From an uncultured Verrucomicrobiae bacterium (GTDB lineage: Bacteria > Verrucomicrobiota > Verrucomicrobiia > Chthoniobacterales > UBA10450), in assembly GCA_963834385.1 (NCBI GenBank), contig CAWIBO010000003.1:392983-456982 (forward strand): a stretch of DNA of 64,000 nt, in the 5' to 3' direction. Below, piece after piece: positions 3,149-51,790 of this stretch. Position numbers and translations under genes: made by a program. The notes under the pieces are model-generated. The model was not told the DNA's origin and ran no database searches. It saw only the letters and a program-made list of their open reading frames with translations. Each line of letters begins with the position of its first letter. Position 1 is the stretch's first letter.

Positions 3149-3276
3149 AGCCGTCGGTGTTGCGAAAACGACACAAGTGTCAGCATTCTTTACACTTTTT
3201 GCCGACACTCCGAAGGGCGCTACGAGGGAAGAAGGGTGGTGGCACCTCCATTGCTAAATGAAACGGCACAACCCTT

Positions 3277-3753: not shown

Positions 3754-3775
3754 CAACATTTCTGCAGCAGATAGA

Positions 3776-3809
3776 GGGCGCGAAGTTGGGGGACTTCGCG
3801 CTCTTTTTC
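3776..3809 (+). terminator. Rho-independent terminator (may act on both convergent genes)
   Basis: A 9-bp stem gcgcgaagt/acttcgcgc with loop tggggg is followed by tcttttt. It lies between the convergent 3277..3753 gene and tyrS. Confidence 0.6.
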
Positions 3810-3825
3810 TGTACCGGGACGATGC

Positions 3826-7234: not shown

Positions 7235-7284
7235 CTCCCTCTAAAACTACGGTCAGCGTCGCGCCGGTGCGCGTTTTTTTCACC

Positions 7285-7776
7285 ATGGAAGACCCGATCA
7301 TCGACCTGCAAAGCGATTCCTTTTTCATGCGCGAAGCGCTGCGGCTGGCGCAGAAGGCCTTCGCGGCCGGGGAAGTCCCGGTGGGCGCCGTGGTGGTGCA
7401 GGCGGGCCGGATCATCGGCCGTTCCCACAACCAGGTGGAGATGTTGAAGGACGCCACCGCGCATGCGGAAATGCTGGCCCTGACCCAGGCGGAAGCCGCC
7501 GTGGGCGACTGGCGCCTGGTCGACTGCGACCTCTATGTGACCAAGGAGCCCTGCCCGATGTGCGCCGGAGCCGCGGTGCATGTGCGGTTGCGCCGGGTCA
7601 TTTTTGGATGTGCCGACGAGCGGGGCGGAGCCGCCGGAGGGCTGCTCAATCTCCTGCAATTGCCCGGGTTGAATCATCGCTGCGAGATCACGCCGGGCGT
7701 CCTGGCCGAAGAAGCGTCGGCGCTCCTGCGCTCGTTCTTCCAGGCGAAACGGGCCCGGACGGCCCCGGAGGCGTGA
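7285..7776 (+). CDS. tadA: tRNA adenosine(34) deaminase
   Basis: Has the HAEMLAL and PCPMCAGA zinc motifs of CDA-fold TadA. The ATG at 7285 is preferred over the ORF-track start at 7198. Confidence 0.9.
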   Translation: MEDPIIDLQSDSFFMREALRLAQKAFAAGEVPVGAVVVQAGRIIGRSHNQVEMLKDATAHAEMLALTQAEAAVGDWRLVDCDLYVTKEPCPMCAGAAVHVRLRRVIFGCADERGGAAGGLLNLLQLPGLNHRCEITPGVLAEEASALLRSFFQAKRARTAPEA

Positions 7777-7808
7777 GCGGCCGCCGCGGCGCGGGTTGGA
7801 GGCGGGGA

Positions 7809-7882
7809 TGGCTGCCTCGCAAGGACTCGAACCTTGACAAAGAGATCCAGAATCTCTCGTGCTACCATTACACCACGAGGCA
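7809..7882 (-). tRNA. tRNA-Gln (anticodon CUG), CCA encoded
   Basis: I folded the cloverleaf by hand. Acceptor stem is TGCCTCG/CGAGGCA, anticodon stem AGAGA/TCTCT with loop TTCTGGA, T arm CAAGG-TTCGAGT-CCTTG, discriminator G followed by CCA. Confidence 0.9.
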
Positions 7883-27941: not shown

Positions 27942-29295
27942 GGCTGTTCCTCCCGCCATTCCTCGGTCAGCTTGTGCGACACGCGCTCCCAGCGGTTCCG
28001 GCGATGGTCGAAGACCGCCTGCTACATGCTCCTGCACGTCGTGCAGAGCCACCGCCGCGTCGGTCTTGCCCGACCAGATCCGGCCGACGGCGTTGCGCAT
28101 GTCGTTGCGGTAAATCGATCCAGATGGTCATCTGCGGGGACAAAGCGCGTTCGGGCTTTTGGCCAGCTCGAGGAATTCGCCGATGTAGGGATTGGGATGG
28201 CGCTGGAAAAACTCGGGGCTGACCTCGCGCAGCGGCGTGAACTTGCGCTGGCCCAGGCAGAGTTTTTCCATCGGCTTCTGCTGGTTGACGTAGCGGATGA
28301 ATTCGAAGGCTTCTCGCGGATGACGGGCCCCCGCCGGAATGACGAGCAGATCGGCTTCGACCATGGTCACGGGCGGACTTGCTCCGGATCTGGGCCTGCG
28401 GAAATGCGGCCACGCCCCATTCGAAATCCGGCGGCGCGTAATTCTTGATGAAATTGTAGATCCAGGCGCCCTGCAGCACCATGGCGACTCGACCGGAAAA
28501 AAACGGATTCTGCGGAGAAGCGAAATTGCCGAAACTGTCGCGGAACGCGAGCAGGTCACGCGCGCCGAAGCGTTCGGGATAGGACTCGATCCAGCGGTAG
28601 GCCGCGATGTTTTCCGGCGAGGCTGCCGTGATTCGTTCCCTGGCCGTCCCAAAGCCGGCCGCCGAACCACCAGCCCCAGATGTCGCTGCACCAGTCGGGC
28701 TCGGCCGGGAGATGGCCGATGGCCTCAAGGCGGCCGTCCGGCCGGCGCTTGACCAGCTTCTCATTGAACTCCTCCAGCTCGGCGATCGAGCGCGGCGGCT
28801 GTTCCGGATCGAGCCCGGCTTCGCGGAAAAGTTTCTTGTTCCAGACCAGGGCGAGCGCGCCCGGCGTGCTCGGGAGAGCCCAGAGATGGTCGCGATGGGA
28901 GCACAGGTTCCAGAAGACGTCGATGTATTGTTCGGCCGAGACGCCGCCTTCCGCCGCCAGCCGGTCGAGCGGCGTAAGCGCGTTGTTCTCCGCGTAAACC
29001 GCCACCATGCGTGACCAGATCCCGGCCACGTCCGGCGGTACGCCGCCCGCCGTGGCGAGCATCAGGCTTGCGGTCGAGTCTGGCTGACGCTCGAGTAATC
29101 GACAAAGATGCGGTCCTGCGCGGCGTTGAAGTCGTCCACCACCGCGCGCATCGCGTCGGCCTCGAAGCCGGTCCATTTTTCCCAGTATTTGATGATCACG
29201 CGGCCTTCGCGCTGGCCCGTGCCCGCCGGGGTGCACGCGCCCAGAAAGGCGCCGAGCAGGAGCACCAGACCGCAACCGTGGCGGACGGCCGTCAC
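27938..29295 (-). pseudogene. ABC transporter extracellular sugar-binding lipoprotein, at least 6 frameshifts
   Basis: The GTG at 29295 overlaps the GH31 stop (GTGA). There is a lipobox LLLGAFLGAC. Conserved SBP segments switch frame near 29080, 28655, 28385, 28142, 28110 and 28025. The stop at 27938 overlaps the permease ATG. Confidence 0.7.
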
Positions 29296-33895: not shown

Positions 33896-34058
33896 AACGA
33901 AGATGAAGTCCACAGATTACGCAGATTGACACAGATTAGGGGGAGGTGCCGGCGGCGCAACGGCCGGCGCCGGAGCTGCTTTCCCTTCCGTCATCCTGAG
34001 CGAAGCGAAGGACCTCCCATGCCAGCACCCGCAACGCCCCCAGTGTTACCTTGGAGGA
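33896..34058. repeat. Direct repeat copy 2 (about 163 bp)
   Basis: Same orientation as copy 1 and near-identical over the central core of roughly 60 nt. It brackets the two antitoxin-like genes. Confidence 0.8.
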
Positions 34059-34138
34059 CCCGATAGGCATAAAATGCGATAGCGAATGCAGCTCGCAGCG
34101 GAGAAGTTCCGCCACTGCGAAGGGTGCCCTTCCGAGGC

Positions 34139-34471
34139 TCAAGGTTTATCAATGGGAACCAGATCGACCATGCTGATCACCGCGTCCACGCGTCCCGTCT
34201 CCCGATGAATCCCAACCCGATAAATCTCCCCGGCTTGTAGAAGGAATCGGACAACAAAGATGGGGATGCTCCCACCCGATTCCGGTTCAATCGTTCCCTC
34301 CGTCACTTTGACGATGGTCGATTCGGGCAGCCTGTGCCCGTCGCGTTCGAGAGCCCCCTTGGCGATTCGAATGGCCTCACGCTGCGACACTGGTTGATGC
34401 CTGGTAAGCTGATCATCTTTGAAGGAGCAGCCCGCAACCAACAAAGTGACGACAAGAAAGAAACGTCTCAT
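34139..34471 (-). CDS. Small lipoprotein, hypothetical
   Basis: 110 aa with lipobox MRRFFLVVTLLVAGC. Confidence 0.55.
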   Translation of the reverse strand: MRRFFLVVTLLVAGCSFKDDQLTRHQPVSQREAIRIAKGALERDGHRLPESTIVKVTEGTIEPESGGSIPIFVVRFLLQAGEIYRVGIHRETGRVDAVISMVDLVPIDKP

Positions 34472-34544
34472 GGGCCGGGAGCCGTTTTTCCTTTGTCCAT
34501 TGGGAAGGGTTGACGTGACTTTAGCCGAACGGAAGATCTCGGAG

Positions 34545-34586
34545 AGCGATTTTTCTTGGGTCGAGCCTTTGGAACCTTTTTGACCT
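34545..34586. repeat. Short intergenic repeat, copy 1
   Basis: agcgatttttcttgggtcgagcctttggaacctttttgacct matches 35289..35345, apart from a 12-13 nt insertion in the second copy. Confidence 0.5.
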
Positions 34587-34609
34587 CGGCGGTCTGCGTC
34601 CGGGCGCGG

Positions 34610-35146
34610 CTAAAGATCGCCGTATGCGCGGCCGGTATAATCTTCAAATTTAAAGCCGCTGCGCTCAGTGATCTTGCGCTGTGCTTTTAGAACAAATGTG
34701 AAAAGCAGGTGGCCACGGATGCCACGCGCCGCCACCAGGCCATCGCCGGTGCCGAACGAATACGACTTCACGATTTCAAGACGCCGATCGTCGTAGCCTA
34801 TCCAGAAGGGGAGGCGGACGAAGCCCAAGTCGTTTTTGAGCTGGAAAAGCGCTGCTTTTACCGGTTCGTTTCCTTCCGAAAACTCGCCCAACGCCATGAC
34901 AAACCACGCGATGTCAACGATGGCGGGATGCTGTTCCCATGAGAGTGCGGGATGCGCATTTAAGTCGAGATGGGCTGCTGCGGCGGACTCACGCAGCCGA
35001 GTGACCGCGAGTTCCAGCCCGCCAAGGACCATCTCTTCGTCGTATCTGATATCGACCGACGTCGTGCCTTCCGCCTCAACAGCCCGAATCGGCGAGCTGC
35101 CTGCGAGGCAGAACAACACAGCTATAACGACCTTCCTAGATGTCAT
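34610..35146 (-). CDS. Secreted hypothetical protein
   Basis: The ATG at 35146 gives the signal-like MTSRKVVIAVLFCLAGSSPIRAVEA. 178 aa. Confidence 0.5.
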   Translation of the reverse strand: MTSRKVVIAVLFCLAGSSPIRAVEAEGTTSVDIRYDEEMVLGGLELAVTRLRESAAAAHLDLNAHPALSWEQHPAIVDIAWFVMALGEFSEGNEPVKAALFQLKNDLGFVRLPFWIGYDDRRLEIVKSYSFGTGDGLVAARGIRGHLLFTFVLKAQRKITERSGFKFEDYTGRAYGDL

Positions 35147-35288
35147 CTGTATCTGCAGGTGCCATTCTCTACGGTGTAGCACTATCATGAGCAGGAGCAG
35201 GAGTCGCGGCAAAAGCCGCGGAGCCTACACGGTCCGCTACGTTCTTGTCATTTTCGGCTTTTCTTAAAATGAAACGGAAAAACTGCGA

Positions 35289-35345
35289 AGGCGATTTCTC
35301 CTGGGTCGAGCCCTTGAATCGACCCATTTGGAACCTTTTTGACAT
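35289..35345. repeat. Short intergenic repeat, copy 2
   Basis: aggcgatttctcctgggtcgagcccttgaatcgacccatttggaacctttttgacat. Confidence 0.5.
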
Positions 35346-35463
35346 TCTGCTTAAATACCCGGCAAAACCGGACGCGAGATCCTGTTTTTCCAGGGTTACG
35401 GACCCTCGTTTGATACCCTTTTGACAGTTGGCGGCGAACATTGGTCCTCACTCGGCATCGCTA

Positions 35464-37021
35464 TTAGACGCTCCAACGCTGTATAATGTCGATCAAGCCG
35501 CGGGTGTCTTGCGCGCAGTATTTTTCGAGTGCTCTTCCTGACACGGCGTCGTTCCCACCAGCTAATTTGAGAAACGCTGATCCGCATGAATTCGCGGCTG
35601 GCGATCTCACCGTCGCTGATCTGCAGGCCGTCGTAGGACGTCGCTGTCAATGCCGGCAACACCGCTTTGAGCGACGCGCTGCCATTCTGCGATGGATGAT
35701 AATATGCCATCCCGCGGAATACTTCGAGCAAATCGAGAAAACGCCGCGACACTGCGCTGACCCACTGAGCGCACTCCGGGAAATACAACGCACAGTCGGC
35801 TAGTCTCTTGGCTTCGAAGTTCGTGTTGTAGCCAACGATGCTGCCGCGCTCGCCTAACAGCTCTCTGAGCTCAAGGAGGAACGCTGGTCGAGGATCGTCG
35901 TTGCCGTCGGCAAGAAAGCTGTGGTGCTCCACCCGCGCGCCTTTGCTTCTGATGATGTGGAGGGAGAATTGAAACGGGATCTGGGTGTACGGGCGGGACC
36001 GGTCGAATAGCGGAACAGCCGACTGGATTGTTTCGAAATCGAGGAAATGCAACGGATACTCGAGTCGCGACAGGAATTGTCTTATCGCTGCGCGATCTAC
36101 GTGTGGCGTTCCGCTTCGGTGAGATGCGACCTGTCGAACCTGCGCGTCGGTTAGAACCATATCTGATGGCATGTCTTCGATTCGAAGAATCCCTCGAGCG
36201 AGCAGATCCCAAGGCCGGCTTTTTGCGTTCCGTAAATCGAACACGCTCGGTTTCGGGAGAAAAGCCCAGCACGATTCCATCAGCGAACAGTCATATGGGT
36301 CCGTGCAATGACGTGACACCTTCACGTCCGGACATTCCGCTAAAGCCAAAACCGGTTTCATTTCTTCCACCTTTCCATGAACCGCCGGTAGCAGTGCGTT
36401 GATCGGGACGGTTACGTCAATTCGGGTTAGCAATTGATGCGGATTAATGTCGCCGGTCCGAATGTATTTTTTGTTCACCAACAGCAGGTAACAGTTCCTA
36501 ATCGATAGTCCTGCGCCTTCGTAGACGTAGCGTTGGAAGGCGAGATCCTGGAGATAAACCTCTCTGAGATCATCTAAGTCTTCGGGGACTCCTGAGCTCT
36601 TTACCTCGATGACGTCCCAGCGCCCATCTGCCGTTGGAGCAAGAATGTCCGCTCTGCTAAAGCACCCGTTGTAAATGAATGAAGCTTCGAAGATCGCTTT
36701 ACCTTGGCGCAGCGCATCGCGAGTCGCGCTAACGGGTTCGGCAAAGCCACCTATATCGCCAAGATCGACACCGCCAGGATATAGCTTCTTCGCCCACTGG
36801 CCGACTTTGTGGCCCTGATCGAAAATGGCTTCCAAGGTGGCGTCAACCGGCGGAAGCAGAGCCTTGTTGTTATAATGAATCCAGAGCGCTTTCGGACACT
36901 GCAGGCCAACCAGATACTTTGTCTTCGATATTAACGGCGGCCCTTTGAGCGACGCCTCGTTTTCTAGAGCGAACCAGCCGGTAAGCAACCGACCTAGGGA
37001 TAAAACAGCCGATCGCATCAT
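35464..37021 (-). pseudogene. DUF2779-type protein: N-terminal Cas4/RecB-like PD-(D/E)XK nuclease plus C-terminal DEDD-like exonuclease domain; C-terminal frameshift at about 35570-35590
   Basis: Motifs seen: KTKYLVGLQCPKALW, RADIL...WDVIEVKSS (D..ExK), LQDLAFQRYVY (QxxxY), the Cys cluster CTDPYDCSLMESC, then HFLDFETIQ..IPFQFSLH and VGYNTNFE. Shifting frame near 35580 restores ...GRALEKYCAQDTRGLIDIIQRWSV* (YC..DT motif) with a stop at 35464. Confidence 0.7.
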
Positions 37022-37035
37022 GACAAAGCCGCGAA

Positions 37036-37311
37036 CTACTTGCCGAACCAATCCGTGATATCGAAAAAGACGCTTAACTCCTTCCCGTCCGGTCCCTGCA
37101 AGATGATTTCATCGATCTGACGACCCGCTTCGTTTTTGCGAGAACGCTGGCGGAGCTTCTGATGCCGCGGGAACTGCGCTTTTATCCACGCTTTTTCAGC
37201 GGCAACACCCTGCTGCTCGTTCTTTGCCTTTGGCAGCGTGATGTGAGCCGAAGCATCCGCGGCCCAATTGGGATCGATCATCCAGTTTTGTTGGTCGTCT
37301 TCTTCTAACAT
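37036..37311 (-). CDS. Hypothetical 91-aa protein (island operon)
   Basis: The ORF is tightly packed. Its start lies 6 nt after the upstream stop, and its stop lies 14 nt before the DUF2779 ATG. No recognisable domain. Confidence 0.45.
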   Translation of the reverse strand: MLEEDDQQNWMIDPNWAADASAHITLPKAKNEQQGVAAEKAWIKAQFPRHQKLRQRSRKNEAGRQIDEIILQGPDGKELSVFFDITDWFGK

Positions 37312-37317
37312 TGTCTT

Positions 37318-37536
37318 TCAGCTGCGGTTCCGACCAGCCAGACTGCCCAGCCAAAGTCTGCGGTTCCGCGTCGAGTCCGAGGCAAGGCCGCTGATTTTGC
37401 GCTGAGCGTCGACAATCGCTTGGGCGTCCCGTTTGTCAGCGACCCAGGCGATTAATTTCTTTTGTGGCCCGACAATCGCCCACGGAAATCCATTCGGCGG
37501 ATTAATCTGTGCTGCGTCAATTTTCCACTGATTCAT
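37318..37536 (-). CDS. Hypothetical 72-aa protein (island operon)
   Basis: ORF MNQWKIDAAQINPPNGFPWAIVGPQKKLIAWVADKRDAQAIVDAQRK... No recognisable domain. Confidence 0.4.
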   Translation of the reverse strand: MNQWKIDAAQINPPNGFPWAIVGPQKKLIAWVADKRDAQAIVDAQRKISGLASDSTRNRRLWLGSLAGRNRS

Positions 37537-37615
37537 GTCCTTAAGCTTAGCCGCGAGAAGGCGCTAACTTCAGGACAAAGTTCGGGGACGGAATCCATCC
37601 AGCCATTAGTCGCCA

Positions 37616-38227
37616 TCAAATGTAATTTGCAATCGCATCGGCGATCTTGAATCGGCATCCAAGCGACTGAGCCCTTAACGGGTGAGCGGGCGCGGTTGAT
37701 AGTGATGGGGGATTATAAACTACTTTCGAAGTAGCGCCGTTTAAATAGAACGGACTCGGACGCGGACTGAGGGATGACAATGCAGCTAAAGCGGAAGCAG
37801 CCTGGCCCTTCGGAAAATTACTCCCCCAAGCAAACCAACAAAATCTCGCGCTGCGATTGGGTGATTGGTCGCCTGGACACAGGCTTTTCAACGCAGCGTA
37901 AACATTTGAGTTGCATAAATAAAAAAGGTTTAGAATCTCGACATAGTCTCCTATTTTCGGGCCTCCGCGCTTCGCCTTTAGTTGCGCTTCATTCAGGATT
38001 TTGATCACCGCGTGCATCGTGTTGTCTAGCGTCGGCCAAACGCCCCAAGTAGTCGTTGCGGCTACCGGCTTCTGTGTGCCGGGATTGCACATCCAAATGA
38101 TACCGACACAATTACCCTGATGCTGCTGGTAACTTTGGATAGGCGTCGTGGCAGGCAGAAAGTACGCCCTAGTGTCCTTACGCGTGTGCGGCGGACCTAC
38201 ATCCCATTGTCCGTAAACGAGCGCCAT
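37616..38227 (-). CDS. DUF1643-like (uracil-DNA-glycosylase-fold) protein
   Basis: 203 aa. VGIIWMCNPGT...LDNTMHAVIKIL...YVEILNLFYLCNSN...RFCWFAWGSNF parallels the DUF1643 pattern (mlNPStA..D.T...v.NLF...aWG) as I recall it from memory. Confidence 0.5.
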   Translation of the reverse strand: MALVYGQWDVGPPHTRKDTRAYFLPATTPIQSYQQHQGNCVGIIWMCNPGTQKPVAATTTWGVWPTLDNTMHAVIKILNEAQLKAKRGGPKIGDYVEILNLFYLCNSNVYAALKSLCPGDQSPNRSARFCWFAWGSNFPKGQAASALAALSSLSPRPSPFYLNGATSKVVYNPPSLSTAPAHPLRAQSLGCRFKIADAIANYI

Positions 38228-38241
38228 ATTCTTGAGCCGCT

Positions 38242-39288
38242 TTAACCCTTCTGAAGCAATTTTCGCAGCCGACGAAAATCGCCGGAATCCTTAAACCCGA
38301 TCTTTGCGGCAACAAACTCATAGCGTTTGTCACCTTTCAATCCTTGTCGGCGCGCAAAGCGATCAGCGAGCTTTGCCTCTCGTTTAAGGCCGACTAGTTC
38401 GCGTCGGCCGATTGAAAAGCCTAGCCCTTGTCGGGCGATACCCCGTGCTCGATGTAGCTGCATCACTTTCGAAAAATCGAGGTCACGCTTCGGGTCCAAG
38501 CTGAGATATCCCGGAATGAACAATTGCGTTCCATACGGAGTAAAGACGACCGACGTTTTCAGCAGCAGTGGTGTGTCGTCCTCCATTCCCCACAGATAGT
38601 ACTTCCAGCAAAGTAGGTCGAATAAGGCTTGGAAACGCGCGCCGTCATCGGTGAACTCGGCGCCCGGACCGCGTTCCCAATTCCGTTCTGGCATTAAGGA
38701 GCGATTGATTACTTTCTTCCGAGCGATCGATTGCGGGAAAGTTTGTTTGAGAAGGGCCCATTCGTTTCGAAAGTCTTCTGACTGCTCCAGATAGAATAGA
38801 TACTCATCATACTTCTCCTGCGCCCTCAGGTAAAATTCGTAGCGCCCTTCATGCACCAGCGTTTCTGATTCTCGGATCACCCCCGGCGCGGCAACCTCCA
38901 GTCGATTGAAACCGCATCGACCGTCAGCGGCATTAAACTGAACAATCATTTCAGCGAGGAGGATCGCCGCGGGATCCGGCGAGGCTGAAGTGAGCGCGCT
39001 CTTCAAGTAGTTGGCGTAATTTTCTGGAAACGCGGGGAAGGCGGATTCGCACTGCCAAAAAGCGTAACAGCACCAGCCTAGTGCTTCGGCCAGCAGCTCC
39101 ACGTTGGGATCGTCATTTTTCGCCAGGACTTTCGGAACTCTTGCAAACAGAAATTCGATTAGGGATCGCGCCTCGGTCGAATCGACAAACGGTAGCGATT
39201 TTAGATGAGCGACGACTTTGGATCGCCATCCCGTTTTAGGGAGACCAAACCGATTCAACCATGTCGCCGCGAACGCCTGTTCACGCAT
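38242..39288 (-). CDS. Hypothetical 348-aa protein, first gene of the island minus-strand operon
   Basis: Long ORF with coherent coding texture. Its stop lies 14 nt before the next start. No motif I can name. Confidence 0.55.
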   Translation of the reverse strand: MREQAFAATWLNRFGLPKTGWRSKVVAHLKSLPFVDSTEARSLIEFLFARVPKVLAKNDDPNVELLAEALGWCCYAFWQCESAFPAFPENYANYLKSALTSASPDPAAILLAEMIVQFNAADGRCGFNRLEVAAPGVIRESETLVHEGRYEFYLRAQEKYDEYLFYLEQSEDFRNEWALLKQTFPQSIARKKVINRSLMPERNWERGPGAEFTDDGARFQALFDLLCWKYYLWGMEDDTPLLLKTSVVFTPYGTQLFIPGYLSLDPKRDLDFSKVMQLHRARGIARQGLGFSIGRRELVGLKREAKLADRFARRQGLKGDKRYEFVAAKIGFKDSGDFRRLRKLLQKG

Positions 39289-39379
39289 CAGTTACGTTAT
39301 ACGCGGCACGGCAGGAAACGCGAAGGCTGAAGATTGGTCCCATACTCAGTCCTGAATTTCCTCTTCGACATCCAGTAAG

Positions 39380-40405
39380 TTGGCGGCGTTGAAAACGATT
39401 GGGCCAATCATAACCGCACTAGATATCGGCCACTCGAAGTGCTGCATGGCCTGCGCCGAGGCAGACCCGCGCGGGTTTCTCCAGCTAATCGGAGTCGCCG
39501 AACGGTCATTCCTGATCGATCCGCCCCAAGCGAACGCATCAGCCGATTTATTGCAGAGAACGATCGCCGATCTCGTTAGACATTTCGAGCAGAAACACGA
39601 AATTGTAATTCACACTGTTCAGCTGGCCGTCAACGGAAAGGACATTCGAGGCGAAACATTCGCCGATGCCGAGCAAGCGGCCATCCCCTTCGGGAACGAA
39701 ATCATTCATCGGTTCGATAGCTGCGGTCGCGAAGTTGATTGGTGGAATTTCGCGCAGGGACACATCATTCACGCGAAAAGAAGTTCGATCGAAGAGAAAA
39801 TAAGGATCGCACGCCGCGCCGGTCTCCAGGTGAATCGACTAGTTCTCACTAGTTTGGCCAGCGCATTTGCCGTGACTAGATCGGCGGAACGCGACGGTCG
39901 GAATTGCCTGGTGATCGATATTGGCAGTAGCAGTGCCGGCTATGTTTTATTTTACGAGGGCAGCATTGCAGCCAGCGGAGTCATCGAAGCCGGAGGACAT
40001 CTAATCACCGCCGAAATTGCGTCTTCTCAAAATGTCTCGTGGGCAAAAGCGGAGCAACTAAAACTGGCCCCGCCCAATGACTCGGCAGAAAGCGAGATCA
40101 TCGCGCGTCATTTGATTGAGCTTTTTTGCAATGTCGCTGAGAAGGTCCGCAGTGGGTTATCGAAGACTGGGTATGTCTACCTGACTGGCGGAACGAGTCG
40201 ATTTCCAAACATCGAACTGATTGCCGCGGGAGTGTTCGATCGACCGGTTTATCGCGCTGCCGCGTTGAACTTCGTGGGCGAATGCGAGCCTACGCGACCG
40301 GAACAATCCACTGCGTTGGGGTTGCTAAAATACGCCGTGTCACACGGTAGCGTCCCGCGCAAAGAATGGCAGGCACGGCGCTGCACCAGGAACCCAGTTT
40401 TATGA
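39380..40405 (+). CDS. FtsA/actin-fold (ASKHA) ATPase-like protein
   Basis: Phosphate-1 ITALDIGHSK, phosphate-2 CLVIDIGSSSAGYVLF, then GGHLITAEIA and the adenosine motif YLTGGTSRFPNI. A region resembling the FtsA SHS2 (1C) insert lies between them. TTG start, so the start is uncertain. Confidence 0.7.
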   Translation: MAALKTIGPIITALDIGHSKCCMACAEADPRGFLQLIGVAERSFLIDPPQANASADLLQRTIADLVRHFEQKHEIVIHTVQLAVNGKDIRGETFADAEQAAIPFGNEIIHRFDSCGREVDWWNFAQGHIIHAKRSSIEEKIRIARRAGLQVNRLVLTSLASAFAVTRSAERDGRNCLVIDIGSSSAGYVLFYEGSIAASGVIEAGGHLITAEIASSQNVSWAKAEQLKLAPPNDSAESEIIARHLIELFCNVAEKVRSGLSKTGYVYLTGGTSRFPNIELIAAGVFDRPVYRAAALNFVGECEPTRPEQSTALGLLKYAVSHGSVPRKEWQARRCTRNPVL

Positions 40406-41523
40406 AAACAACCCCTCAGCCAGAAATGAAAACCACACCTCTTGCGCTCACACACGGTGTCGTTACCACCCGATGGCCAGATCAGTATTCGAATGATCCA
40501 TTCGCGATCGGAGCCACGCAAGGTTGGCATTCGATGTCCCGATCGGGGCGATGGAATGCCGCAAAAATGATGCATGATTTGCACGCAGCTTTAATTCACT
40601 CCCGCGCCGCTGATCGCACAGGAGTCTCAAAAACCGGGAAGGTCTATTGGGGAACGCTAATCTTCGCCCCCGACAAAAGCCGTTATGTGGCTTTGCATCA
40701 TTACGGGGATGAGATCTGGTTCCTTCGCGTTTGGGCGAATTCCGCCGTTGTCGCGGCCAGCGAATTCAACCGCTTGAGAAAGAGGTATCTCTTGGCCGAT
40801 CGTGACGACGGCTCTGGAGAATTCTTCATTTTAACCCATGGAATGGCTGGACCAGATAAGCGTCGTATCAAGGTGCCGGAGCGGAAACTGAATGAAGCAG
40901 AATTACATCTGCACTATGGCGACGACTTTGTTGTTTGGCATACGCAATTGATGGAGCTAATCCGTACCCAAAAGACCGGTGTCACTATTCTGCAAGGACC
41001 GCCCGGGACCGGTAAAACGAGCTACCTTCGCCATCTGCTGTTCGCAACGCAGAAAACGCATCGCTTTTACTATCTGCCGATCAGCGTTTATCCGATGCTC
41101 GTAGCACCGACATCAGTGGACTTCTGGATTGGCGAGAATGAGACAACCGAGTGCCTAACTAAAGTGGTCGTAATCGAAGACGCCGAAGCGCTCCTCATGC
41201 AGCGGGACAACGGCAACCAGGAATCGGTTTCTAATTTACTCAACATTGCAGACGGATTCCTCGGCGACTTTCTGAAACTGCACGTGATCTGTACCATCAA
41301 CGCGCCGGTTGAGAAGCTGGACCCGGCGGTAACACGACCGGGGCGTCTGATTGCCTCACGCCAATTTCGTCGCCTAACAACTAGCGAGGCAATGCGCTTG
41401 GCAAACGCAAAAAATCTCAGGCTCGAGCCGCGCGAGGACTATTCCCTAGCCGAGATTTATAACGGTTCTGCCGCCCGGCTTGACGAATCTAATGATCGAA
41501 CTCTAGGATTCTCCCCTCATTAA
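40402..41523 (+). CDS. AAA+ ATPase (classic/BCS1-like clade) with an unknown N-terminal domain of about 200 aa
   Basis: The ATG at 40402 overlaps the upstream stop (ATGA). Walker A is GPPGTGKTS, Walker B VVVIEDAEAL, followed by LLNIADGF, sensor-1 CTIN and the Arg finger PAVTRPGRL. Confidence 0.8.
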   Translation: MKTTPQPEMKTTPLALTHGVVTTRWPDQYSNDPFAIGATQGWHSMSRSGRWNAAKMMHDLHAALIHSRAADRTGVSKTGKVYWGTLIFAPDKSRYVALHHYGDEIWFLRVWANSAVVAASEFNRLRKRYLLADRDDGSGEFFILTHGMAGPDKRRIKVPERKLNEAELHLHYGDDFVVWHTQLMELIRTQKTGVTILQGPPGTGKTSYLRHLLFATQKTHRFYYLPISVYPMLVAPTSVDFWIGENETTECLTKVVVIEDAEALLMQRDNGNQESVSNLLNIADGFLGDFLKLHVICTINAPVEKLDPAVTRPGRLIASRQFRRLTTSEAMRLANAKNLRLEPREDYSLAEIYNGSAARLDESNDRTLGFSPH

Positions 41524-41541
41524 CCAGATGACTTCAATTCT

Positions 41542-41727
41542 ATGAAACAAGACAATCAGCATCCACCACGCAAAGGTGAGACCTCGGCCAAATCTGCCTC
41601 GGTCAAAAACGACAAACTAGCTGCCAACGTTCAAGCGAGCCTAGAGCAGTTAAAAAAAGACGTAAAAGCGGGCGATCGCAAAGCCGCTGAGTTTCAAAAG
41701 TTGCTAAATGCCTTTCGGAAACATTGA
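41542..41727 (+). CDS. Small basic helical protein (61 aa)
   Basis: The ORF starts 18 nt after the AAA+ stop. It is Lys-rich and looks helical (ASLEQLKKDVKAGDRKAAEFQKLLNAFRKH). Confidence 0.4.
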   Translation: MKQDNQHPPRKGETSAKSASVKNDKLAANVQASLEQLKKDVKAGDRKAAEFQKLLNAFRKH

Positions 41728-41784
41728 AGTCGCGACGATGGATCAAGCATCTGCGAGCACACCCTTGTCTTGGCAGATTCCTAA

Positions 41785-42104
41785 ATGACTGATCTGGAAT
41801 ATCAACTACGCGTCAGCGAATTAGACGTTCGTGATAAAGAAGCGCGATTGAAAGAAGCGCGCACCCGGTTCGATACCACTGCAGCTAAAGGTCGATCTGA
41901 GGTGCAGCTAAAGGTCGATCTGAGGTCGAAAAAGCCAAAGCAGATCTCAGCAAGATTGAAGCGGAAACTATCGCGGCTTACGAAAAGGCCAAGCAGGACT
42001 TGGAGCGCGCACAGATAGATTTGGATCGCGAGAAGTGCGGTCTTGAATATGCACGCGCGAACCTCGCCCGGGGATCGGATCATAAATCTCCGACTCAAGA
42101 GTAA
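41785..42104 (+). pseudogene. Coiled-coil protein gene disrupted by a 23-bp tandem duplication
   Basis: As written, the ORF stops at 42018 after a frame change. Removing one 23-nt copy gives a clean 98-aa heptad-like ORF (…AAKGRSEVEKAKADLSKIEAETIAAYEKAKQDLERAQIDLDREK…TQE*) ending at 42104. Confidence 0.55.
41881..41926 (+). repeat. Perfect 23-bp tandem duplication (2 copies)
   Basis: gcagctaaaggtcgatctgaggt occurs at 41881-41903 and is repeated exactly at 41904-41926. Confidence 0.9.
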
Positions 42105-42468
42105 TGATGAATTTTGATTTGCCGCATGGCTATTCGTCTACGCCTTGACCCGTTGCCAGCCTGCGACGTGCGCCGGAACAAAATGCGGCGTTTGAATCCA
42201 CCGGGAATTGGCATCTTTTGGCGCCGACGGCGGGCGCTGGCGGATCTGTGGTGTCGCGGGACGCGGTCATTTTCGCTCGGTTTTCGACAGGCAGATGTTC
42301 CTGCTGGTCTCGAGTGATCATTTTAACCGGAAGAAGTTCGTCCGACCCTCATCAATTTACGGAATCACTACGACAACATCTGGATGATTGGTTCTAAGAT
42401 GTGCTCGAGAATACCGAGGATTAACTGTTTAGGCCTAACCAGCCTGAGTTTTCGTATTACAGAAATCC

Positions 42469-42542
42469 CGGAGCCTACGGGGCTCGAACCCGCAACCTCT
42501 GCCGTGACAGGGCAGCGCTCTAACCAATTGAGCTAAGGCTCC
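42469..42542 (-). tRNA. tRNA-Asp (anticodon GUC), CCA not encoded
   Basis: I folded it by hand. Acceptor stem is GGAGCCT/AGGCTCC, D arm GCTC-AATTGGTTA-GAGC, anticodon arm CTGCC-CTGTCAC-GGCAG, T arm GCGGG-TTCGAGC-CCCGT, discriminator G. Confidence 0.9.
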
Positions 42543-42671
42543 TCGAAGAGGGGGACAGATTAGTCGGGGCCGCGGGCGGTTCAAACGGTTTTTCGGCGGC
42601 GCTGACTCGCCCGCGATTCTTTTCCCGCACGCTTTCGTCACCGAGGAGCCCGGCGCAGGGCAAAACCCCGC

Positions 42672-45096: not shown

Positions 45097-46773
45097 GTGA
45101 GTCAGGAACACGACGAGGGAATTTCCCCGGCCGGACGGCCGAAGACCGTGCTGGAGGCGGTTGACCGTCTCCTGGTTTCGCTGCCGGAAAACGACCCGGT
45201 GCGGACCGAGCTGGCGGCGCTGCGCGAGGAGGTGGCCGGCCAGGAGGAGATCATCGGCGAAGCGCGGCAGGTGATCGAAAAGCTGGAGCAGGTGATCAAG
45301 AAAGTGACCTCGCCGGCCAACCGGATCGGGACGTTCCTCGGCGCGGTCGGCCGCGACACCGCGCACATTGTCGTCGGCGGCTCCGATTATTTTTGCAACA
45401 TCGATCCGCGCCTGCCGCGGCGGAGCCTGCGCAAGGGGACGCGCGTCCTCGTCAACGAAGCCTACGTCATTGTCGGTGATCTCGGCTACGAGACGGCCGG
45501 TCCGGTGGCGCGGGTGACCGAGGTGCTTGGCTCCGAGCGTCTGCGGGTGGGCTCGGAGCAGGGGCTGCAATCGGTGGTGCTGGAGCGGTCCGACCGGCTG
45601 GAGGGTGTGGCGGTAAAAGTGGCCGACGAGGTGCGAGTCGATCCCGGTTTCCGGATGGCGCTCGAGGTCATGGCGCAGGGCAAAGCGCAGCAGCATTTCC
45701 TGGATGCGGTGCCGGAGTTGCCCTGGGAAAAGGTGGGCGGGCAGGAGGCGGCTTTGCAGGCGATTCGCGACGCCATCGAGTTGCCGCTTTTGCACCCGGA
45801 ACTCTTCGAGAAGTTCGATCATGCCACGCCCAAGGGTTTTCTCCTGCACGGCCCGCCGGGTTGCGGCAAGACCCTGATCGGCAAAGCCACGGCCTATAAC
45901 CTGACGCGGCAGCTCCGGGAAAAGACGGGCGCCGACATGACGGAATATTTCATGCACGTGAAAGGCCCGGAAGTGCTCAACATGTGGGTGGGGGAATCCG
46001 AGCGCATGGTCCGCGAGATCTTTGCCACCGCGCGCGAGAAAAGCCGGGAGGGATTCCTGCCTTTCCTCTTCATTGACGAAGCCGAGAGCATTCTGGGAAC
46101 CCGGCGCGCCTCGCGTTTCTCCAACATTCTTTCCACGCTTGTGCCGATGTTCTGCGCCGAGATGGACGGGATCGATTCGCTGCATGAGGTGGTGATCATC
46201 CTGGCCTCGAATCGGGCTGACCTGATCGACCCGGCCATCCTGCGCCCGGGCCGGATCGACCGAAAGATTCGGGTGCGTCGGCCGGACAAGGCAGGGGCGC
46301 GCGCGATTTATCGGATCTATCTGACGGATCGGCTGCCCTACGAAGGAGTGCTGGCGAAAGAAGGGAAGGGGATCGGGCCGGCCCTCGATCGGCTGGTGGA
46401 GCGCTTTGTGGACTGGCAGTTTGCGCGGCGGGACGAGAACCGGTTTTTGGAGGTCACGCTGCGGAGCGGACGCAAGGAAGCGCTTTATCGGAGCGATCTG
46501 TTGAGCGGCGCGCTCATTGCCTCCGTGGTGGAACGGGCCAAGGCCTACGCGATCAAGCGGGCCATCGCGACGGGGAACGAGGAGGGCATCAGCGAGGCCG
46601 ATTTGCAGGCTTCGTTTCGAGCCGAGTTCGTCGAGAACGATATTTTTCCGCCGACTGATATCACGGAGGACTGGCTGAAGCTGATCGACTACGAGCCCGA
46701 GAACGTGGTCAAGGTCGCGCCGGTCCGGCCGGCGGGTGCGCGTCGGCGGGAACAGCCTTCCGCCGTGATCTAA
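45097..46773 (+). CDS. mpa: Mpa/ARC-type proteasome-associated AAA+ ring ATPase
   Basis: GTG start with GGGAAGGGA upstream. An N-terminal coiled coil is followed by tandem OB-like segments (IGTFLGAVGRDTAHIVVGG...VLVNEAYVIV; ARVTEVLGSERLRV...), then GFLLHGPPGCGKTLIGKA, FIDEAE and RPGRIDRKI. Confidence 0.85.
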   Translation: MSQEHDEGISPAGRPKTVLEAVDRLLVSLPENDPVRTELAALREEVAGQEEIIGEARQVIEKLEQVIKKVTSPANRIGTFLGAVGRDTAHIVVGGSDYFCNIDPRLPRRSLRKGTRVLVNEAYVIVGDLGYETAGPVARVTEVLGSERLRVGSEQGLQSVVLERSDRLEGVAVKVADEVRVDPGFRMALEVMAQGKAQQHFLDAVPELPWEKVGGQEAALQAIRDAIELPLLHPELFEKFDHATPKGFLLHGPPGCGKTLIGKATAYNLTRQLREKTGADMTEYFMHVKGPEVLNMWVGESERMVREIFATAREKSREGFLPFLFIDEAESILGTRRASRFSNILSTLVPMFCAEMDGIDSLHEVVIILASNRADLIDPAILRPGRIDRKIRVRRPDKAGARAIYRIYLTDRLPYEGVLAKEGKGIGPALDRLVERFVDWQFARRDENRFLEVTLRSGRKEALYRSDLLSGALIASVVERAKAYAIKRAIATGNEEGISEADLQASFRAEFVENDIFPPTDITEDWLKLIDYEPENVVKVAPVRPAGARRREQPSAVI

Positions 46774-47555
46774 CGCCAGCGACGCCACCAGCGGCGGCGG
46801 GGCGGGGGAGCCGGCGGCCGGAGCGGCCGGGGTTTGATGACTTCGACCGAGGCGGCGAGAGCATCGTTGAATTCGCGGCGAATTTGTTCCTCCCGCCGGG
46901 CGTAGTGAACGCCCCAGCCGCGGGAGAAATCGGCGTCGGAATGGCGCGGCAGCATCTCGCGGGTGCGAGCAAGAAGATAATCGACCCCGAGCTGTTTGTA
47001 GTGGAGAAGGGCGACATCGCGTTTTCCCGGGACGGTATTGCCGGTGGGCGCGCACAGATGCCGGCCGGGCGTGTAGTTCATGGCGTCGATCTGGTTTGGA
47101 TCGAAGATGCAGATTTTATCGAGGTAAAACTGGCGCGACCCGCGTACCAGCGCCCGGCAAAGATCGGTCCTGGGCGGTGGAAACGTTTCGCTGATCATGT
47201 CGTAGCCGTTTGTCTGCACCAGGGTGATGCCGTTTTCCTTTGCGAGGGCGAGATAACCACGGAGATCGCGGTGATAAAGGAACTCATCGATGTCGACCAT
47301 GATGGTCCAGTCGCACTGTCCGCGGCTCTCCTGCATGATCGGCTTCTCGAGAGAGAGCTGGGCGTCGATGAAGGATTCGGCCCTCGGCAGCTCGCGCAAT
47401 TCGACTTTGGGCGAGGCGGCCAGCAGCTCGCATGAACGGTCCGTGGAACCGTCATCGTAGATCACCATCCGGTCGGCGATCGGTTCGTAATGCGCCAGGA
47501 AAAACGGGATGAGTTGTTCCTCGTTCCAGCAGGGGGCATGAAGATCGATTCGCAC
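46770..47555 (-). CDS. GT-A fold glycosyltransferase (family 2-like)
   Basis: 261 aa. CWNEEQLIPFFLAHYEPIADRMVIYDDGSTDRS...IMVDIDEF carries the DxD region. The C-terminal tail is Arg/Trp-rich. Confidence 0.65.
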   Translation of the reverse strand: MRIDLHAPCWNEEQLIPFFLAHYEPIADRMVIYDDGSTDRSCELLAASPKVELRELPRAESFIDAQLSLEKPIMQESRGQCDWTIMVDIDEFLYHRDLRGYLALAKENGITLVQTNGYDMISETFPPPRTDLCRALVRGSRQFYLDKICIFDPNQIDAMNYTPGRHLCAPTGNTVPGKRDVALLHYKQLGVDYLLARTREMLPRHSDADFSRGWGVHYARREEQIRREFNDALAASVEVIKPRPLRPPAPPPRRRWWRRWR

Positions 47556-47649
47556 CGCGCCGAGTGTGGGGGCGTTTTTTCGTGCGCGCCACGCTTTTTC
47601 GGGCGGCGACGGTCGACGAGGCCGGGGGATGCCCTAAGCTTTATCCGGG

Positions 47650-49126
47650 ATGAAAAGCGTTTTCGGGCTGGAGACGGAGTATGGGATCACGGTGGCGGGC
47701 GCCGAGTCGGAAATCGACGTGGTGGCGGAGTCGATCGCGCTGGTCCGGAGCTACACTGAGCACGGAGCGCACATGAAGTGGGATTACGAACTGGAGGATC
47801 CGCACCAGGACGCCCGCGGGTTCCGCGCGCGGGAGCTGCTCCAGGACACGGACGAATCGGCCTACTACGAAGTGGACCGGCGGCGCGCGCTCACTTTCGA
47901 GGAGATCAAGAGCGACCTCGTGCTCTCCAACGGCGCCCGTTTTTACAACGATCATGCGCACCCGGAATATTCCACGCCGGAATGCAGCTCGCTGCGCGAG
48001 TTGGTGGCCCAGGACAAGGCGGGCGAACGCATCCTGGCCGAATGCGCGCGGCGGCGGCAAATCCATCTGCCCGGAAGGCCGCGCGCTCCGCCTCTACAAG
48101 AACAACACGGACTTCGTCGGGCACAGCTACGGCTGCCACGACAACTACCTGGTGGCCCGCGCGGTTCCCTGGAACGATCTCGTGGCGGGCATTCTTCCGT
48201 TTCTCGTCACCCGCCAGATCTTCGCCGGCGCGGGAAAAATGGGCGTGGAATCGGAGAGCGCGGCCGGCCAGCCTGGTCTTTACCAGATCGCGCAGCGTTC
48301 GGATTTCTTCAGCGTCCTCGTGAGCATCGATACCATGAACCGGCGGCCGCTGGTGAACACGCGGGACGAGCCGCATGCCGACCCGGCGAAATACCGGCGG
48401 TTCCACGTGATCATTGGCGACGCCAACATGAGCGAGTGGGCCACGGCGATGAAAGTGGGGACCACCGCGCTCATTTTGGAGCTGATCGAGCGGGGAGAAG
48501 TCCCGGCGGTGGAGCTGGCCCAGCCGATCGAGGCCACACGGTCGATCAGCCGCGACCAGGATCATCAATGGATCGTGGAGCTGGCGGACGGCCGGAAAAT
48601 TTCGGCGGTTGATCTGCAGCGGCTTTACCTGGCCGCGGCGCAGCGTCTGCCGGCGGAATCGATGGCGGAGCAGGGATGGATTCTCCAGGAATGGGAGAGC
48701 GTCCTGAACGATTTGGACGATGACCCGACGAAAACCCGGGACCGGGTGGACTGGGCGGCGAAAAAAGAACTGCTCTCCGCCCTGCGCGAGGAGGAGAGAC
48801 TGGAGTGGAGCGACCCGTGGCTGCAGGCGATCGACCTGGAGTATCACAACATTGACCCGGAGAGCGGGCTGGCGAGTGAACTGACCAGGCAGGGGTCGCT
48901 CCGGCGGCTCGTGACGGAGGAGGAAATCAAGGCGGCCATCTTCAATCCGCCCGAGACCACGCGCGCCTTCTTTCGTGGACGGGCCGTGGCGCAGTTCAAT
49001 TCGCGGATCGAATCGATCCAGTGGGACGAGATCGTGTTTGCCGCAAAAGGTGGAAGCCGGCGCATAGCCCTCCCAGAGCCTGGCGCGAGCTACCGCGAGA
49101 TGCTGGAGGAGATCAGGACCAGCTGA
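47650..49126 (+). pseudogene. dop: Pup-ligase-family enzyme, Dop-like (depupylase/deamidase); one frameshift at about 48070
   Basis: The sequence shows [24 protein letters not shown] (an insertion I associate with Dop), [19 protein letters not shown], then after a frame switch [47 protein letters not shown] and PPETTRAFFRG. Confidence 0.8.
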
Positions 49127-51665
49127 TCAGCCGCAGTTCGTGGCTCTGCTGGAGGTGCGGATGAGTGGGCACGGCGCGGACACTGAACGCATAGGCGCCG
49201 CTCTCGGTTGCCGGGATGTCGCCGGCATAACTGTATTCGCCGTGGGCGGCACCGCCTGCGGCCTGAAGCACCGTGGTGGCGGGATGCCTGATATCGCCGT
49301 TCTCCGTCTCGCCGTAATAGGCTTCCACCCGCACGTTCCGCGGATCGACGGCGCCGAGGTGAACCCGGGCCGTCACCTGGAGTTTCTCGCCCACGAGGAC
49401 GTTTTGCCGATCCTTGTTCCCCACCTGCACATCGGTGATGCGGACCTGCGCCCAGTCCTTGCGGATCCGTGATTTCCACTGGCTCAGCTCGGTCGCGGCC
49501 TGGCAGTTATCTCGCGAAAACTCGGCGAAACCGGCGGCGGCGGGCGCATAAAGCCGCTCGGCGTATTCCTTGACCATGCGGTGCGTGTTGAATACGGGGG
49601 TGACGCTGCGGATGGAATCGCGCATCAACTGCAGCCAGGCCAGGGGAAGACGGCCGTCGGGCTTGGCGTAATAGAGCGGCACGATCTGGTTCTCGAGCAA
49701 CTGGTAGAGGCTGTTCGCGTCCACCGCGCTCTGGAACTCCACCGTGCCGGTCTCGATTTCGGCCCCGATGGCCCAGCCGTTCTTGCCGTTGAAACCCTCG
49801 CACCACCAGCCATCGAGCACGCTCAGGTTGAGCCCCCCGTTCGGGGGCGCCTTCATCCCGCTGGTCCCGCTCGCCTCGAGCGGCCGCAGCGGATTGTTCA
49901 GCCAGAGATCGACGCCCTGGACGAGCCGGCGCGCGATGTAGGTATCGTAATCCTCCACGAACACGATCCGGTTCTCCAGCCCGGCCTCGCGCGTGAACTC
50001 GTAGACTTCCTGGATGAGCGCCTTGCCCCCCTCGTCGCGCGGATGCGATTTGCCGGCAAAGATGAACTGCACCGGGCGGGTGGAATCGTTCACCAGGCGC
50101 TGCAGGCGTTCCTTGTCGGAAAAAAGCAGGGCGCCGCGCTTGTAGGTGGCGAAACGGCGGGCGAACCCGATGGTGAGGATCTCGGGATCAAGGATCTGGT
50201 TGATCTGGCGGATGGCCTCGGGCGCTTCGCCGATGCGGAGGGCGCGCTGCCGGGTGCGTTCCCGCACGAACTGGACGAGGCGCAGCTTCAGTTTCTGGTG
50301 TGTTTCCCACAGTTCCGTGTCGGGAATCTCGATCACGCCGCGCCAGAAGTCGGGATCGGTCAGGTTTTCCTCCCAGTCGCCGAGATACTTCGAGTAGAGG
50401 GCGGAGAACTCGGGGGCGAGCCAGGTCTTGGTGTGAATGCCGTTGGTGATGCTGGTGATCGGGACCTCGTGCTGCGGCACGCCGCTCCAGACGTCCTTCC
50501 AGAGACCCTGGCTGACCTTGCCGTGCAGCGCGCTCACGCCATTCGCGTGGCGCGAGGCGCGCAGGGCGAGAATGGTCATGCTGAAAGGATCATCGGCGTT
50601 CACGCGCGTCTGGCCGAAGGAGAAGAGTTCGTCGAAGGGAAGCCCGATCTCCTTCGCGAAATCGCCGAAATACTTGCGCATCATTTCGCGCGGGAAGGAA
50701 TCGTTGCCCGCGGGCACGGGGGTGTGCGTGGTGAAAACGTTCGCGGCCGCGACCACCTGTAGGGCGGAATAGAAATCGAGCCCCTTTTCCTTGATCAGGA
50801 GACGGATGCGCTCGAGCGCGAGAAAGGCGGAATGCCCCTCGTTCATGTGAAAAACTTCCGACTCGATCCCGAGCAGACCGAGGACGCGGACGCCGCCGAC
50901 GCCGAGGAGAATTTCCTGGCGCATGCGCATTTCGAGGTCGCCCCCGTAGAGTTCCGCCGTGATCAGCCGGTCTTCCGGCGTGTTCTCGGCCACGTCGGTA
51001 TCGAGCAGGTAGAGGTTGACCCGGCCGACGTGGAGTTCCCAGATTTTCGCCACGACTTCGCGGTCGAGGATGCGCACGGAAACGAGGACGCGCCGGTCAT
51101 CCTTGCGCACCTCGCGGATGGGCAGGTGATGGAAGTTCTGGTTCAGGTTGATCGCCTCCTGCATCCCGGTGCGATCGATTTGCTGGCGGAAATAGCCGTG
51201 CCGGTAAAGCAGGCCGATGGCGTTGAAATTCAGGTCGAGATCGCTGGCCGACTTGCAATGGTCGCCGGCGAGAATGCCGAGGCCGCCCGAGTAATTGGGG
51301 ATCGATTCGTGGAAACCGAACTCAGCCGAGAAATAGGCAATCGGTTTTTGCAGGACCTTGCCGGCGCCGGTCTTGCCGTAGGTGTCCTTGCGCGCCATGT
51401 AGCGCTTGAAGGCGTCGTGCACTTCCTTGAGTTCGCGCAGGAAATTCTTGTCCTGGGCCAGCTCCTCGAGGCGCGCCTGGCGCGAGAGCTGGAGCATCCG
51501 GATCGGGTTATGGTTGGTCCGGTTCCAGAGTTCGGGGTCGAGATGACGGAAAAGACGGCGGGCGGCCGGCTCCCAGGTCCACCAGAGGTTGAAGACCATT
51601 TCGCGCAACGGCTCGAGAGCGGCGGGAAGAATCGGGGCGACGTGATAGGTAAGATAATTCGGCAT
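49113..51665 (-). CDS. glgP: Alpha-glucan (glycogen/maltodextrin) phosphorylase, GT35, GlgP family
   Basis: The ATG at 51665 gives MPNYLTYHVAPILPAALEPLREMVFNLWWTWEP. The sequence includes GGLGILAGDH and EASGTSGMKAPPNG, the pyridoxal-phosphate Lys region. Confidence 0.9.
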   Translation of the reverse strand: MPNYLTYHVAPILPAALEPLREMVFNLWWTWEPAARRLFRHLDPELWNRTNHNPIRMLQLSRQARLEELAQDKNFLRELKEVHDAFKRYMARKDTYGKTGAGKVLQKPIAYFSAEFGFHESIPNYSGGLGILAGDHCKSASDLDLNFNAIGLLYRHGYFRQQIDRTGMQEAINLNQNFHHLPIREVRKDDRRVLVSVRILDREVVAKIWELHVGRVNLYLLDTDVAENTPEDRLITAELYGGDLEMRMRQEILLGVGGVRVLGLLGIESEVFHMNEGHSAFLALERIRLLIKEKGLDFYSALQVVAAANVFTTHTPVPAGNDSFPREMMRKYFGDFAKEIGLPFDELFSFGQTRVNADDPFSMTILALRASRHANGVSALHGKVSQGLWKDVWSGVPQHEVPITSITNGIHTKTWLAPEFSALYSKYLGDWEENLTDPDFWRGVIEIPDTELWETHQKLKLRLVQFVRERTRQRALRIGEAPEAIRQINQILDPEILTIGFARRFATYKRGALLFSDKERLQRLVNDSTRPVQFIFAGKSHPRDEGGKALIQEVYEFTREAGLENRIVFVEDYDTYIARRLVQGVDLWLNNPLRPLEASGTSGMKAPPNGGLNLSVLDGWWCEGFNGKNGWAIGAEIETGTVEFQSAVDANSLYQLLENQIVPLYYAKPDGRLPLAWLQLMRDSIRSVTPVFNTHRMVKEYAERLYAPAAAGFAEFSRDNCQAATELSQWKSRIRKDWAQVRITDVQVGNKDRQNVLVGEKLQVTARVHLGAVDPRNVRVEAYYGETENGDIRHPATTVLQAAGGAAHGEYSYAGDIPATESGAYAFSVRAVPTHPHLQQSHELRLISWS

Positions 51666-51790
51666 GAAATCGGGCGGGCTGGGAAGTAAGCCGGGAGTGT
51701 GGCAGGAAAATTTTTTGCAGCAAGCGTTCACCGCGGCGTTTTCCCCGGTAGAGTGAGCGCCCGCCGGTGGAGCCGGCGGGGAGACCGCCC

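Follow-up and report, generated by a model that had tools for sequence, protein, structure and literature searches.

We analyzed a pair of genes that encode a proteasome-type AAA+ unfoldase (Mpa, also called ARC) and a Dop-type enzyme of the Pup-ligase family, the latter a predicted deamidase/depupylase, on a 64-kb stretch of DNA from an uncultured Verrucomicrobiae bacterium of the order Chthoniobacterales (contig CAWIBO010000003.1; the whole stretch is called the window below). We put at roughly 0.8 the probability that the two genes form one half, Mpa and Dop, of the known UBact-proteasome system, the genes of which are dispersed in Chthoniobacterales; the pair is most likely an ordinary split locus of a system already known, and not an orphan. 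A sequence-only reading of the same DNA had instead described the pair as lacking both a modifier and a proteasome, and this is most likely wrong, since relatives within the Chthoniobacterales carry UBact, PrcB, and PrcA genes at a separate locus whose sequencing depth matches that of the Mpa-Dop contig. Statements of absence for the window refer to its 64 kb, and the evidence on partner genes is drawn from relatives.

Results

Within the window we found no open reading frame (ORF) with a Pup- or UBact-like tail and no gene for PrcB, PrcA, or a second Pup-ligase paralogue, and the earlier remark that neither a small tag ORF nor 20S genes can be seen near the pair is thereby confirmed for the full stretch. 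To retrieve real UBact proteins we used a UBact consensus, which scored 80.8 bits against the NCBIfam UBact model NF033388 (cut-off 35), and the UBact family PF20513 was present in all proteins retrieved; a further profile was then built from 80 Chthoniobacterales loci. Neither the consensus nor this profile matched the window (best 7.7 bits, E 0.33).

In other Verrucomicrobiota the system is encoded by six-gene operons in the order Mpa-Dop-UBact-PrcB-PrcA-PafA (L085, L087, L088, and L095). Two UBact clusters considered as candidates for a Chthoniobacterales type (P0125 and P0206) were rejected because each is a complete six-gene operon from another lineage. A profile of the operon-encoded PrcB proteins, searched against cluster representatives, led to a split-type PrcB cluster whose matches bear the name Chthoniobacteraceae and to a second conserved locus (L100), in which a LysM gene and UBact-PrcB-PrcA occupy opposite strands and Dop is missing. 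A 1.9-Mb contig with the same arrangement shows neither Mpa nor Dop nor PafA in a reach of 10 kb, and here the gene caller missed UBact immediately upstream of prcB, the ORF being intact and canonical. A metagenome scan recovered at least 80 split-type loci, with UBact and PrcB present throughout and PrcA wherever the contig reaches; Mpa and Dop were found in none of these loci within the reach of the contigs. In 59 of the 83 split-type loci (L100 to L182), UBact-prcB-prcA is preceded by a LysM-domain gene in divergent orientation, and one locus (L113) has a PafA-type gene 2 kb upstream (6478-7872).

The split-type UBact scores 87 bits against the NCBIfam UBact model, and the 20S beta (TIGR03690) and alpha (TIGR03691) models are the best for the two proteasome subunits, at 163.5 and 63.0 bits, both below the equivalog cut-offs of 191.9 and 139.05. 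The Pup-ligase paralogue of L113 scores nearly equally against the PafA model TIGR03686 (328.9 bits; cut-off 551.3) and the Dop model (322.9 bits). A PafA-type paralogue in a complete operon (L087, 11811-13187) behaves in the same way (275 versus 267 bits), and the PafA-type paralogue of UBact systems matches solved Dop at 204 bits and solved PafA at 195 bits, yet has no Dop loop; these scores suggest a ligase lineage that diverged on its own. The C-terminal residue of UBact is glutamine in 69 and glutamate in 11 of 80 split-type loci. Because the tag mostly ends in glutamine, most of these lineages would, by analogy with Pup, need a deamidase, and this need would explain the retention of Dop.

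The two half-loci are linked by their depth in two small ant-associated metagenomes, X4 and X5, in which the organism of locus L104 is dominant. Each run contains exactly one contig that matches the window mpa and dop and exactly one that carries UBact-PrcB-PrcA. The Mpa-Dop contig, collinear with both window genes at ∼80% nucleotide identity, has depths of 14.6 in X4 and 8.95 in X5; the corresponding values are 15.0 and 9.08 for the UBact-PrcB-PrcA contig and 16.3 and 10.5 for a contig with a PafA-like gene. Contigs are usually assigned to one genome when their depths agree in two samples, and here such agreement is good evidence, not proof, that both half-loci belong together. The sequence-only reading had itself named the presence of tag, 20S, and ligase genes elsewhere as what would reduce the pair to an ordinary split locus, and such genes are found in relatives, on contigs separate from the Mpa-Dop contig. 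Of the three explanations that it offered (a remnant, a split locus, or an unrecognized tag), the second is thus the one favored by our data, and the other two are disfavored. No contig was found in common between the listed Dop matches and the listed UBact or PrcB matches. We also considered whether two loci on contigs of equal length (L067 and L104, each 185,227 bp) were one contig and rejected this, because the L067 Mpa lies on other contigs and not on that of L104, and because the samples behind the two differ (soil versus ant metagenomes). Candidatus Udaeobacter copiosus has been published as encoding all bacterial proteasome components.

The assignment of the second window gene to Dop rather than PafA, which had been made from the sequence alone, is upheld by three comparisons. 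Read through a frame change discussed below, the protein has 491 residues (intact relatives have ∼505), carries the motif FGLETEYG at its N terminus (the GhExE motif of the glutamine-synthetase-like fold), and matches the Pup_ligase family (PF03136) over profile positions 2-440 across two frames. It scores 477.1 bits from residue 3 onward against the Dop model TIGR03688, compared to 386.2 bits against the PafA model, where the match begins only at residue 87; because of this late start, the Dop-loop region resembles Dop alone. The Dop score is below the equivalog cut-off of 492.3, as is that of a Dop from a complete UBact operon (472.2 bits), and we take the NCBIfam cut-offs for Mpa and Dop to have been tuned mainly on actinobacterial sequences. 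Among solved structures, the window protein matches Acidothermus Dop (5LRT, 4B0R) at 414 bits over residues 2-476 (5LRT, E 5.5e-123) and PafA (4B0T) at 264 bits. Finally, PafA-type and Dop-type proteins form separate clades with 100/100 support in a maximum-likelihood tree, and the window protein is placed in the Dop clade alongside Acidothermus Dop, three Dops encoded in operons, and the Dops of Chthoniobacterales. We conclude that its sequence is that of a Dop-type and not a PafA-type enzyme. Databases contain thousands of relatives; the best reach 72 to 78% identity and are named Dop, Pup amidohydrolase, or PafA2, with Chthoniobacterales or Verrucomicrobiota given as the source, while identity to Dops of complete UBact operons is 54 to 56%.

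For the Mpa protein, the OB and AAA+ parts of the architecture that had been read from it are confirmed, and the coiled coil is putative. Pfam recovers the double OB domain and the AAA+ module in order (Prot_ATP_ID_OB_N, PF17758, 7e-18; Prot_ATP_ID_OB_C, PF16450, 4.5e-8; AAA, PF00004, 1.6e-29), the Walker A (GPPGCGKT) and Walker B (FIDEAE) motifs are readable in the translation, and residues ∼38-75 of the N-terminal helical region are heptad-like as judged by eye. Its match to TIGR03689 (pup_AAA, "proteasome ATPase") spans residues 49-541 and, at 438.6 bits, falls short of the equivalog cut-off of 504.75; the protein is 53 to 59% identical to Mpas of complete UBact operons. Its C terminus reads ...QPSAVI; in 61 relatives the tail is [G/S/A]-[V/I]-[I/V] behind a linker of variable sequence, most often GVI (44) or GII (9), and operon-encoded Mpas of other Verrucomicrobiota terminate in AII, PAI, or PVA. 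The penultimate tyrosine of the GQYL/HbYX docking motif is absent from the window Mpa, from the Mpas of its clade, and from those of complete operons. The docking tail, which the sequence-only reading had suggested as a check, turned out to have no discriminating power: because Mpas encoded in complete UBact-proteasome operons likewise lack this tyrosine, the test cannot reveal a proteasome partner. Conservation of the last residues suggests that some docking function is kept, and G-[V/I]-I may be a tyrosine-less docking motif.

The dop gene is broken by a single +1 frame change, which had been noticed near position 48070 and which is borne out by the C/G run, read directly, and by the two-frame Pfam match: frame 1 matches positions 2-116 of the Pup_ligase profile, and the +1 frame matches positions 123-440. 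The read-through protein aligns to intact relatives without a gap at the junction, and outside the break it agrees with 228 of 231 near-invariant columns (conservation of 98% or more among 82 relatives); the substitutions in the remaining three are conservative. Because these columns otherwise match, the break should be either recent or an assembly error. A related soil contig, 93% identical, has one base fewer at 48070. In a long-read metagenome-assembled genome (MAG) with a complete UBact operon (L085, 6831-10014), mpa and dop are each split into two called genes, which shows that such frame breaks are common in these assemblies. Two other window genes seem to be cut short as well, one for exosortase EpsH (9887-10705; profile positions 3-193 of 254) and one for a solute-binding protein (28556-29275; profile positions 43-182 of 307). 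We lean toward an assembly error as the cause of the frame change in dop and hold a recent real mutation to be possible, at somewhat less than even odds; the break should be compared with the reads before the gene is labeled a pseudogene.

A broken dop is also what would be seen if the lineage had lost UBact and the 20S proteasome and its Mpa-Dop pair were decaying, with a frame change that is truly inactivating. The C-terminal tail of the window Dop, which overlaps glgP and lacks 15 to 20 residues compared to relatives, and the position of the protein on its own basal branch fit such a remnant, but we consider it unlikely: there is one lesion only in a protein that otherwise keeps its near-invariant columns, mpa is intact with its conserved terminal tail, and the other apparently truncated genes of the window point to assembly error, as do split genes of a like kind in long-read MAGs of relatives. 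Programmed +1 recoding as a part of dop expression would accord with a site that is a short C/G run within an otherwise perfect gene, yet all 82 relatives have a single frame here, as do all of the listed database matches (the best 120 of about 8000), and the related contig is without the extra base; no stimulatory element was seen, though none was looked for. Because every relative reads one frame, recoding is very unlikely, and we give it next to no weight.

To place the pair in context, we examined Mpa-Dop loci across the clade. When one genome was scanned for each species, the Dop clade turned up in at least 356 genomes, the closed chromosomes OY969715.1 and OZ244652.1 also carry it, and the best 80 genomes, used for loci, are almost all labeled as Chthoniobacterales, Udaeobacter, Spartobacteria, or Verrucomicrobiota MAGs; the comparison covered 84 related loci (L001 to L084) with a reach of ∼10 kb, two of them supplied by Udaeobacter MAGs. 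In most loci mpa lies upstream of dop, and in most a glgP-like gene, 75 to 82% identical, lies downstream. The window itself has glgP directly after dop in convergent orientation, as first read, with a 14-nucleotide overlap between glgP and the dop stop. In 21 loci dop lacks an mpa neighbor over 10 kb, and in one of these it stands behind hydrogenase maturation genes. Genes for UBact, PrcB, PrcA, and PafA are missing from the 10 kb around dop in all 84 loci, and no ORF with a tail motif is common across the Mpa-Dop loci; 53-residue and 72-residue ORFs in L004 were considered as tag genes and rejected as not UBact-like. One contig labeled as a Nitrospirota MAG (L081) carries a Chthoniobacterales-type Mpa-Dop pair 73% identical to that of the window and may be misbinned.

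The absence of a tag gene from every one of these loci, the separation of dop from mpa in some of them (for instance behind hydrogenase maturation genes), and the strong conservation of the dop-glgP convergence could also be accommodated if Mpa and a single Dop-like enzyme worked on an unrecognized tag or substrate without UBact or a proteasome; Dop might then be an amidase or ligase for some other small protein and Mpa a stand-alone unfoldase. We give this a very slim chance. A canonical, mostly Gln-ended UBact is encoded beside prcBA in the same order, with a depth that covaries with that of Mpa-Dop, and the Dops of the clade are orthologues of those in complete operons.

The presence of a family-2 glycosyltransferase gene on the opposite strand between mpa and dop, with a stop that overlaps the mpa stop, agrees with the earlier description and is established by the ORF map and the PF13704 match (Table 1). 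No homologue of this gene occurs in the 84 related Mpa-Dop loci, where the mpa-dop spacer ranges from 13 to 4570 nucleotides: of 62 loci, 32 have a spacer of <200 nucleotides, 17 one of 250 to 700 nucleotides, and 13 one of 1 to 4.6 kb. The distance between the mpa match and the dop match is ∼295 nucleotides in one related contig and 1165 nucleotides in the window. Because the spacer varies and relatives are without a homologue, the glycosyltransferase is a lineage-specific insertion in a variable spacer and stands outside the system. In another lineage the spacer holds a gene for a ParE-family toxin (L004, 9486-9997, and L008), with a 72-residue ORF upstream of the inserted gene that is a likely antitoxin.

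Table 1. Positions of the genes and features discussed (window coordinates unless a locus is named)
Feature	Position	Strand	Basis or remark
tRNA-Asp	42469-42542	-	
mpa/arc, proteasome-type AAA+ unfoldase, 558 residues	45097..46773	+	Pfam, TIGR03689
Family-2 glycosyltransferase, 261 residues	46770..47555	-	PF13704 Glyco_tranf_2_4 (8e-16), PF00535
dop, predicted Dop-type deamidase/depupylase of the Pup-ligase family	47650..49126	+	PF03136, TIGR03688, 5LRT, tree
Single +1 frame change in dop, short C/G run near 48070	48055..48080	+	Sequence, Pfam break
glgP, alpha-glucan phosphorylase	49113..51731	-	75-82% identity to the same-position gene in relatives
UBact ORF, L101	9805-9981		Upstream of prcB
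UBact ORF, L102	4858-5034		Upstream of prcB

Elsewhere in the window, positions 34000-42600 have a lower G+C content (0.52 to 0.56, compared to about 0.63 to 0.65 in the remainder), and this stretch ends beside the tRNA-Asp gene. Its genes encode a DUF2779 protein, several proteins without a Pfam match, and an FtsA/PilM-like actin-fold ATPase with an AAA ATPase behind it; the stretch is possibly an island that entered at this tRNA gene.

Discussion

In this study, we characterized an Mpa-Dop pair that appears isolated in a 64-kb window and compared it with Mpa-Dop and UBact-proteasome loci of relatives. UBact-proteasome loci of Gram-negative phyla were reportedly described by Lehmann et al. 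in 2017 in BBRC. The window shares with complete UBact operons orthologous Mpa (53 to 59%) and Dop (54 to 56%) proteins, the Dop loop, and an Mpa without the penultimate tyrosine, and its relatives have a canonical UBact gene followed by prcB and prcA. It differs from them in that Mpa-Dop, UBact-PrcB-PrcA, and PafA lie at separate sites in its clade, and also in its antisense glycosyltransferase in the mpa-dop spacer and its frame-broken dop.

The actinobacterial Pup-proteasome system (Mpa/ARC, Dop, Pup, PrcBA, and PafA) has the same enzyme families and predicted chemistry, with a Gln-ended tag that needs deamidation. The tags end differently, in GGQ/E for Pup and in RYRQRTGQ/E for UBact in the relatives, as do the Mpa tails, GQYL in Actinobacteria and G-[V/I]-I in the Chthoniobacterales clade, and both window proteins are under the NCBIfam equivalog cut-offs. 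Separation of genes is known there too, mpa and pafA of Mycobacterium tuberculosis lying apart from dop-pup-prcBA. Corynebacterium has ARC, Dop, Pup, and PafA without 20S genes, a proteasome-less pupylation that would resemble the earlier reading of the window as devoid of a proteasome; because the relatives of the window, in contrast, carry prcB and prcA, this model is unnecessary.

By analogy with the Pup system, and given the gene content, the dispersed genes would most likely act together as follows. A UBact tag of ∼58 residues, in this clade usually ending in RQRTGQ, would be supplied by the distant locus that also encodes PrcB and PrcA. Dop would convert the terminal glutamine of the tag to glutamate and would later strip the tag from substrates, and a PafA-type paralogue encoded at yet another site would join the tag to substrate lysines. 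The N-terminal helical region of Mpa would bind the tag, and Mpa would then unfold the substrate and feed it to the 20S core, to which it would probably dock through its conserved C-terminal G-[V/I]-I tail.

Several points weigh against assigning the pair to a dispersed UBact-proteasome system. The evidence for UBact, the 20S subunits, and PafA comes from relatives and not from the genome of the window itself, and the half-loci are joined by depth in two metagenomes of a relative rather than by one contig or a closed genome, with the PafA-like contig ∼10% deeper than the other two. The window Dop lies at the base of the Chthoniobacterales clade and is not nested among the relatives tested. At 48070, no piece of the strain of the window spans the frame change, and the site is covered only by the 93%-identical relative. 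In addition, we found no bench activity of any UBact system in the literature. One alternative is that the window belongs to a basal lineage without UBact and 20S genes in which Mpa-Dop acts on another target, or, in a milder version, that the system is dispersed over at least three loci and docks through a tyrosine-less tail; we see only a slim chance of this. Were the lineage indeed without UBact and the 20S core, Dop would be an amidase or ligase for an unrecognized small protein and Mpa a stand-alone unfoldase, and in the milder version the G-[V/I]-I tail would dock Mpa to the 20S core in a novel manner.

As a discovery the split UBact-proteasome locus carries little weight, for the system is catalogued and the orthologues are already named Dop or PafA2 in databases. 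Its implications are rather for annotation and for the biology of the group: an orphan-looking Mpa-Dop pair in Chthoniobacterales should not be taken as a tag-less system. Members of this order are some of the most abundant soil bacteria, and their UBact-proteasome genes are scattered, with the 58-residue UBact sometimes left uncalled, L101 being an example. The conserved, tyrosine-less tail of Mpa and the mostly Gln-ended tag provide direct hypotheses for biochemistry.

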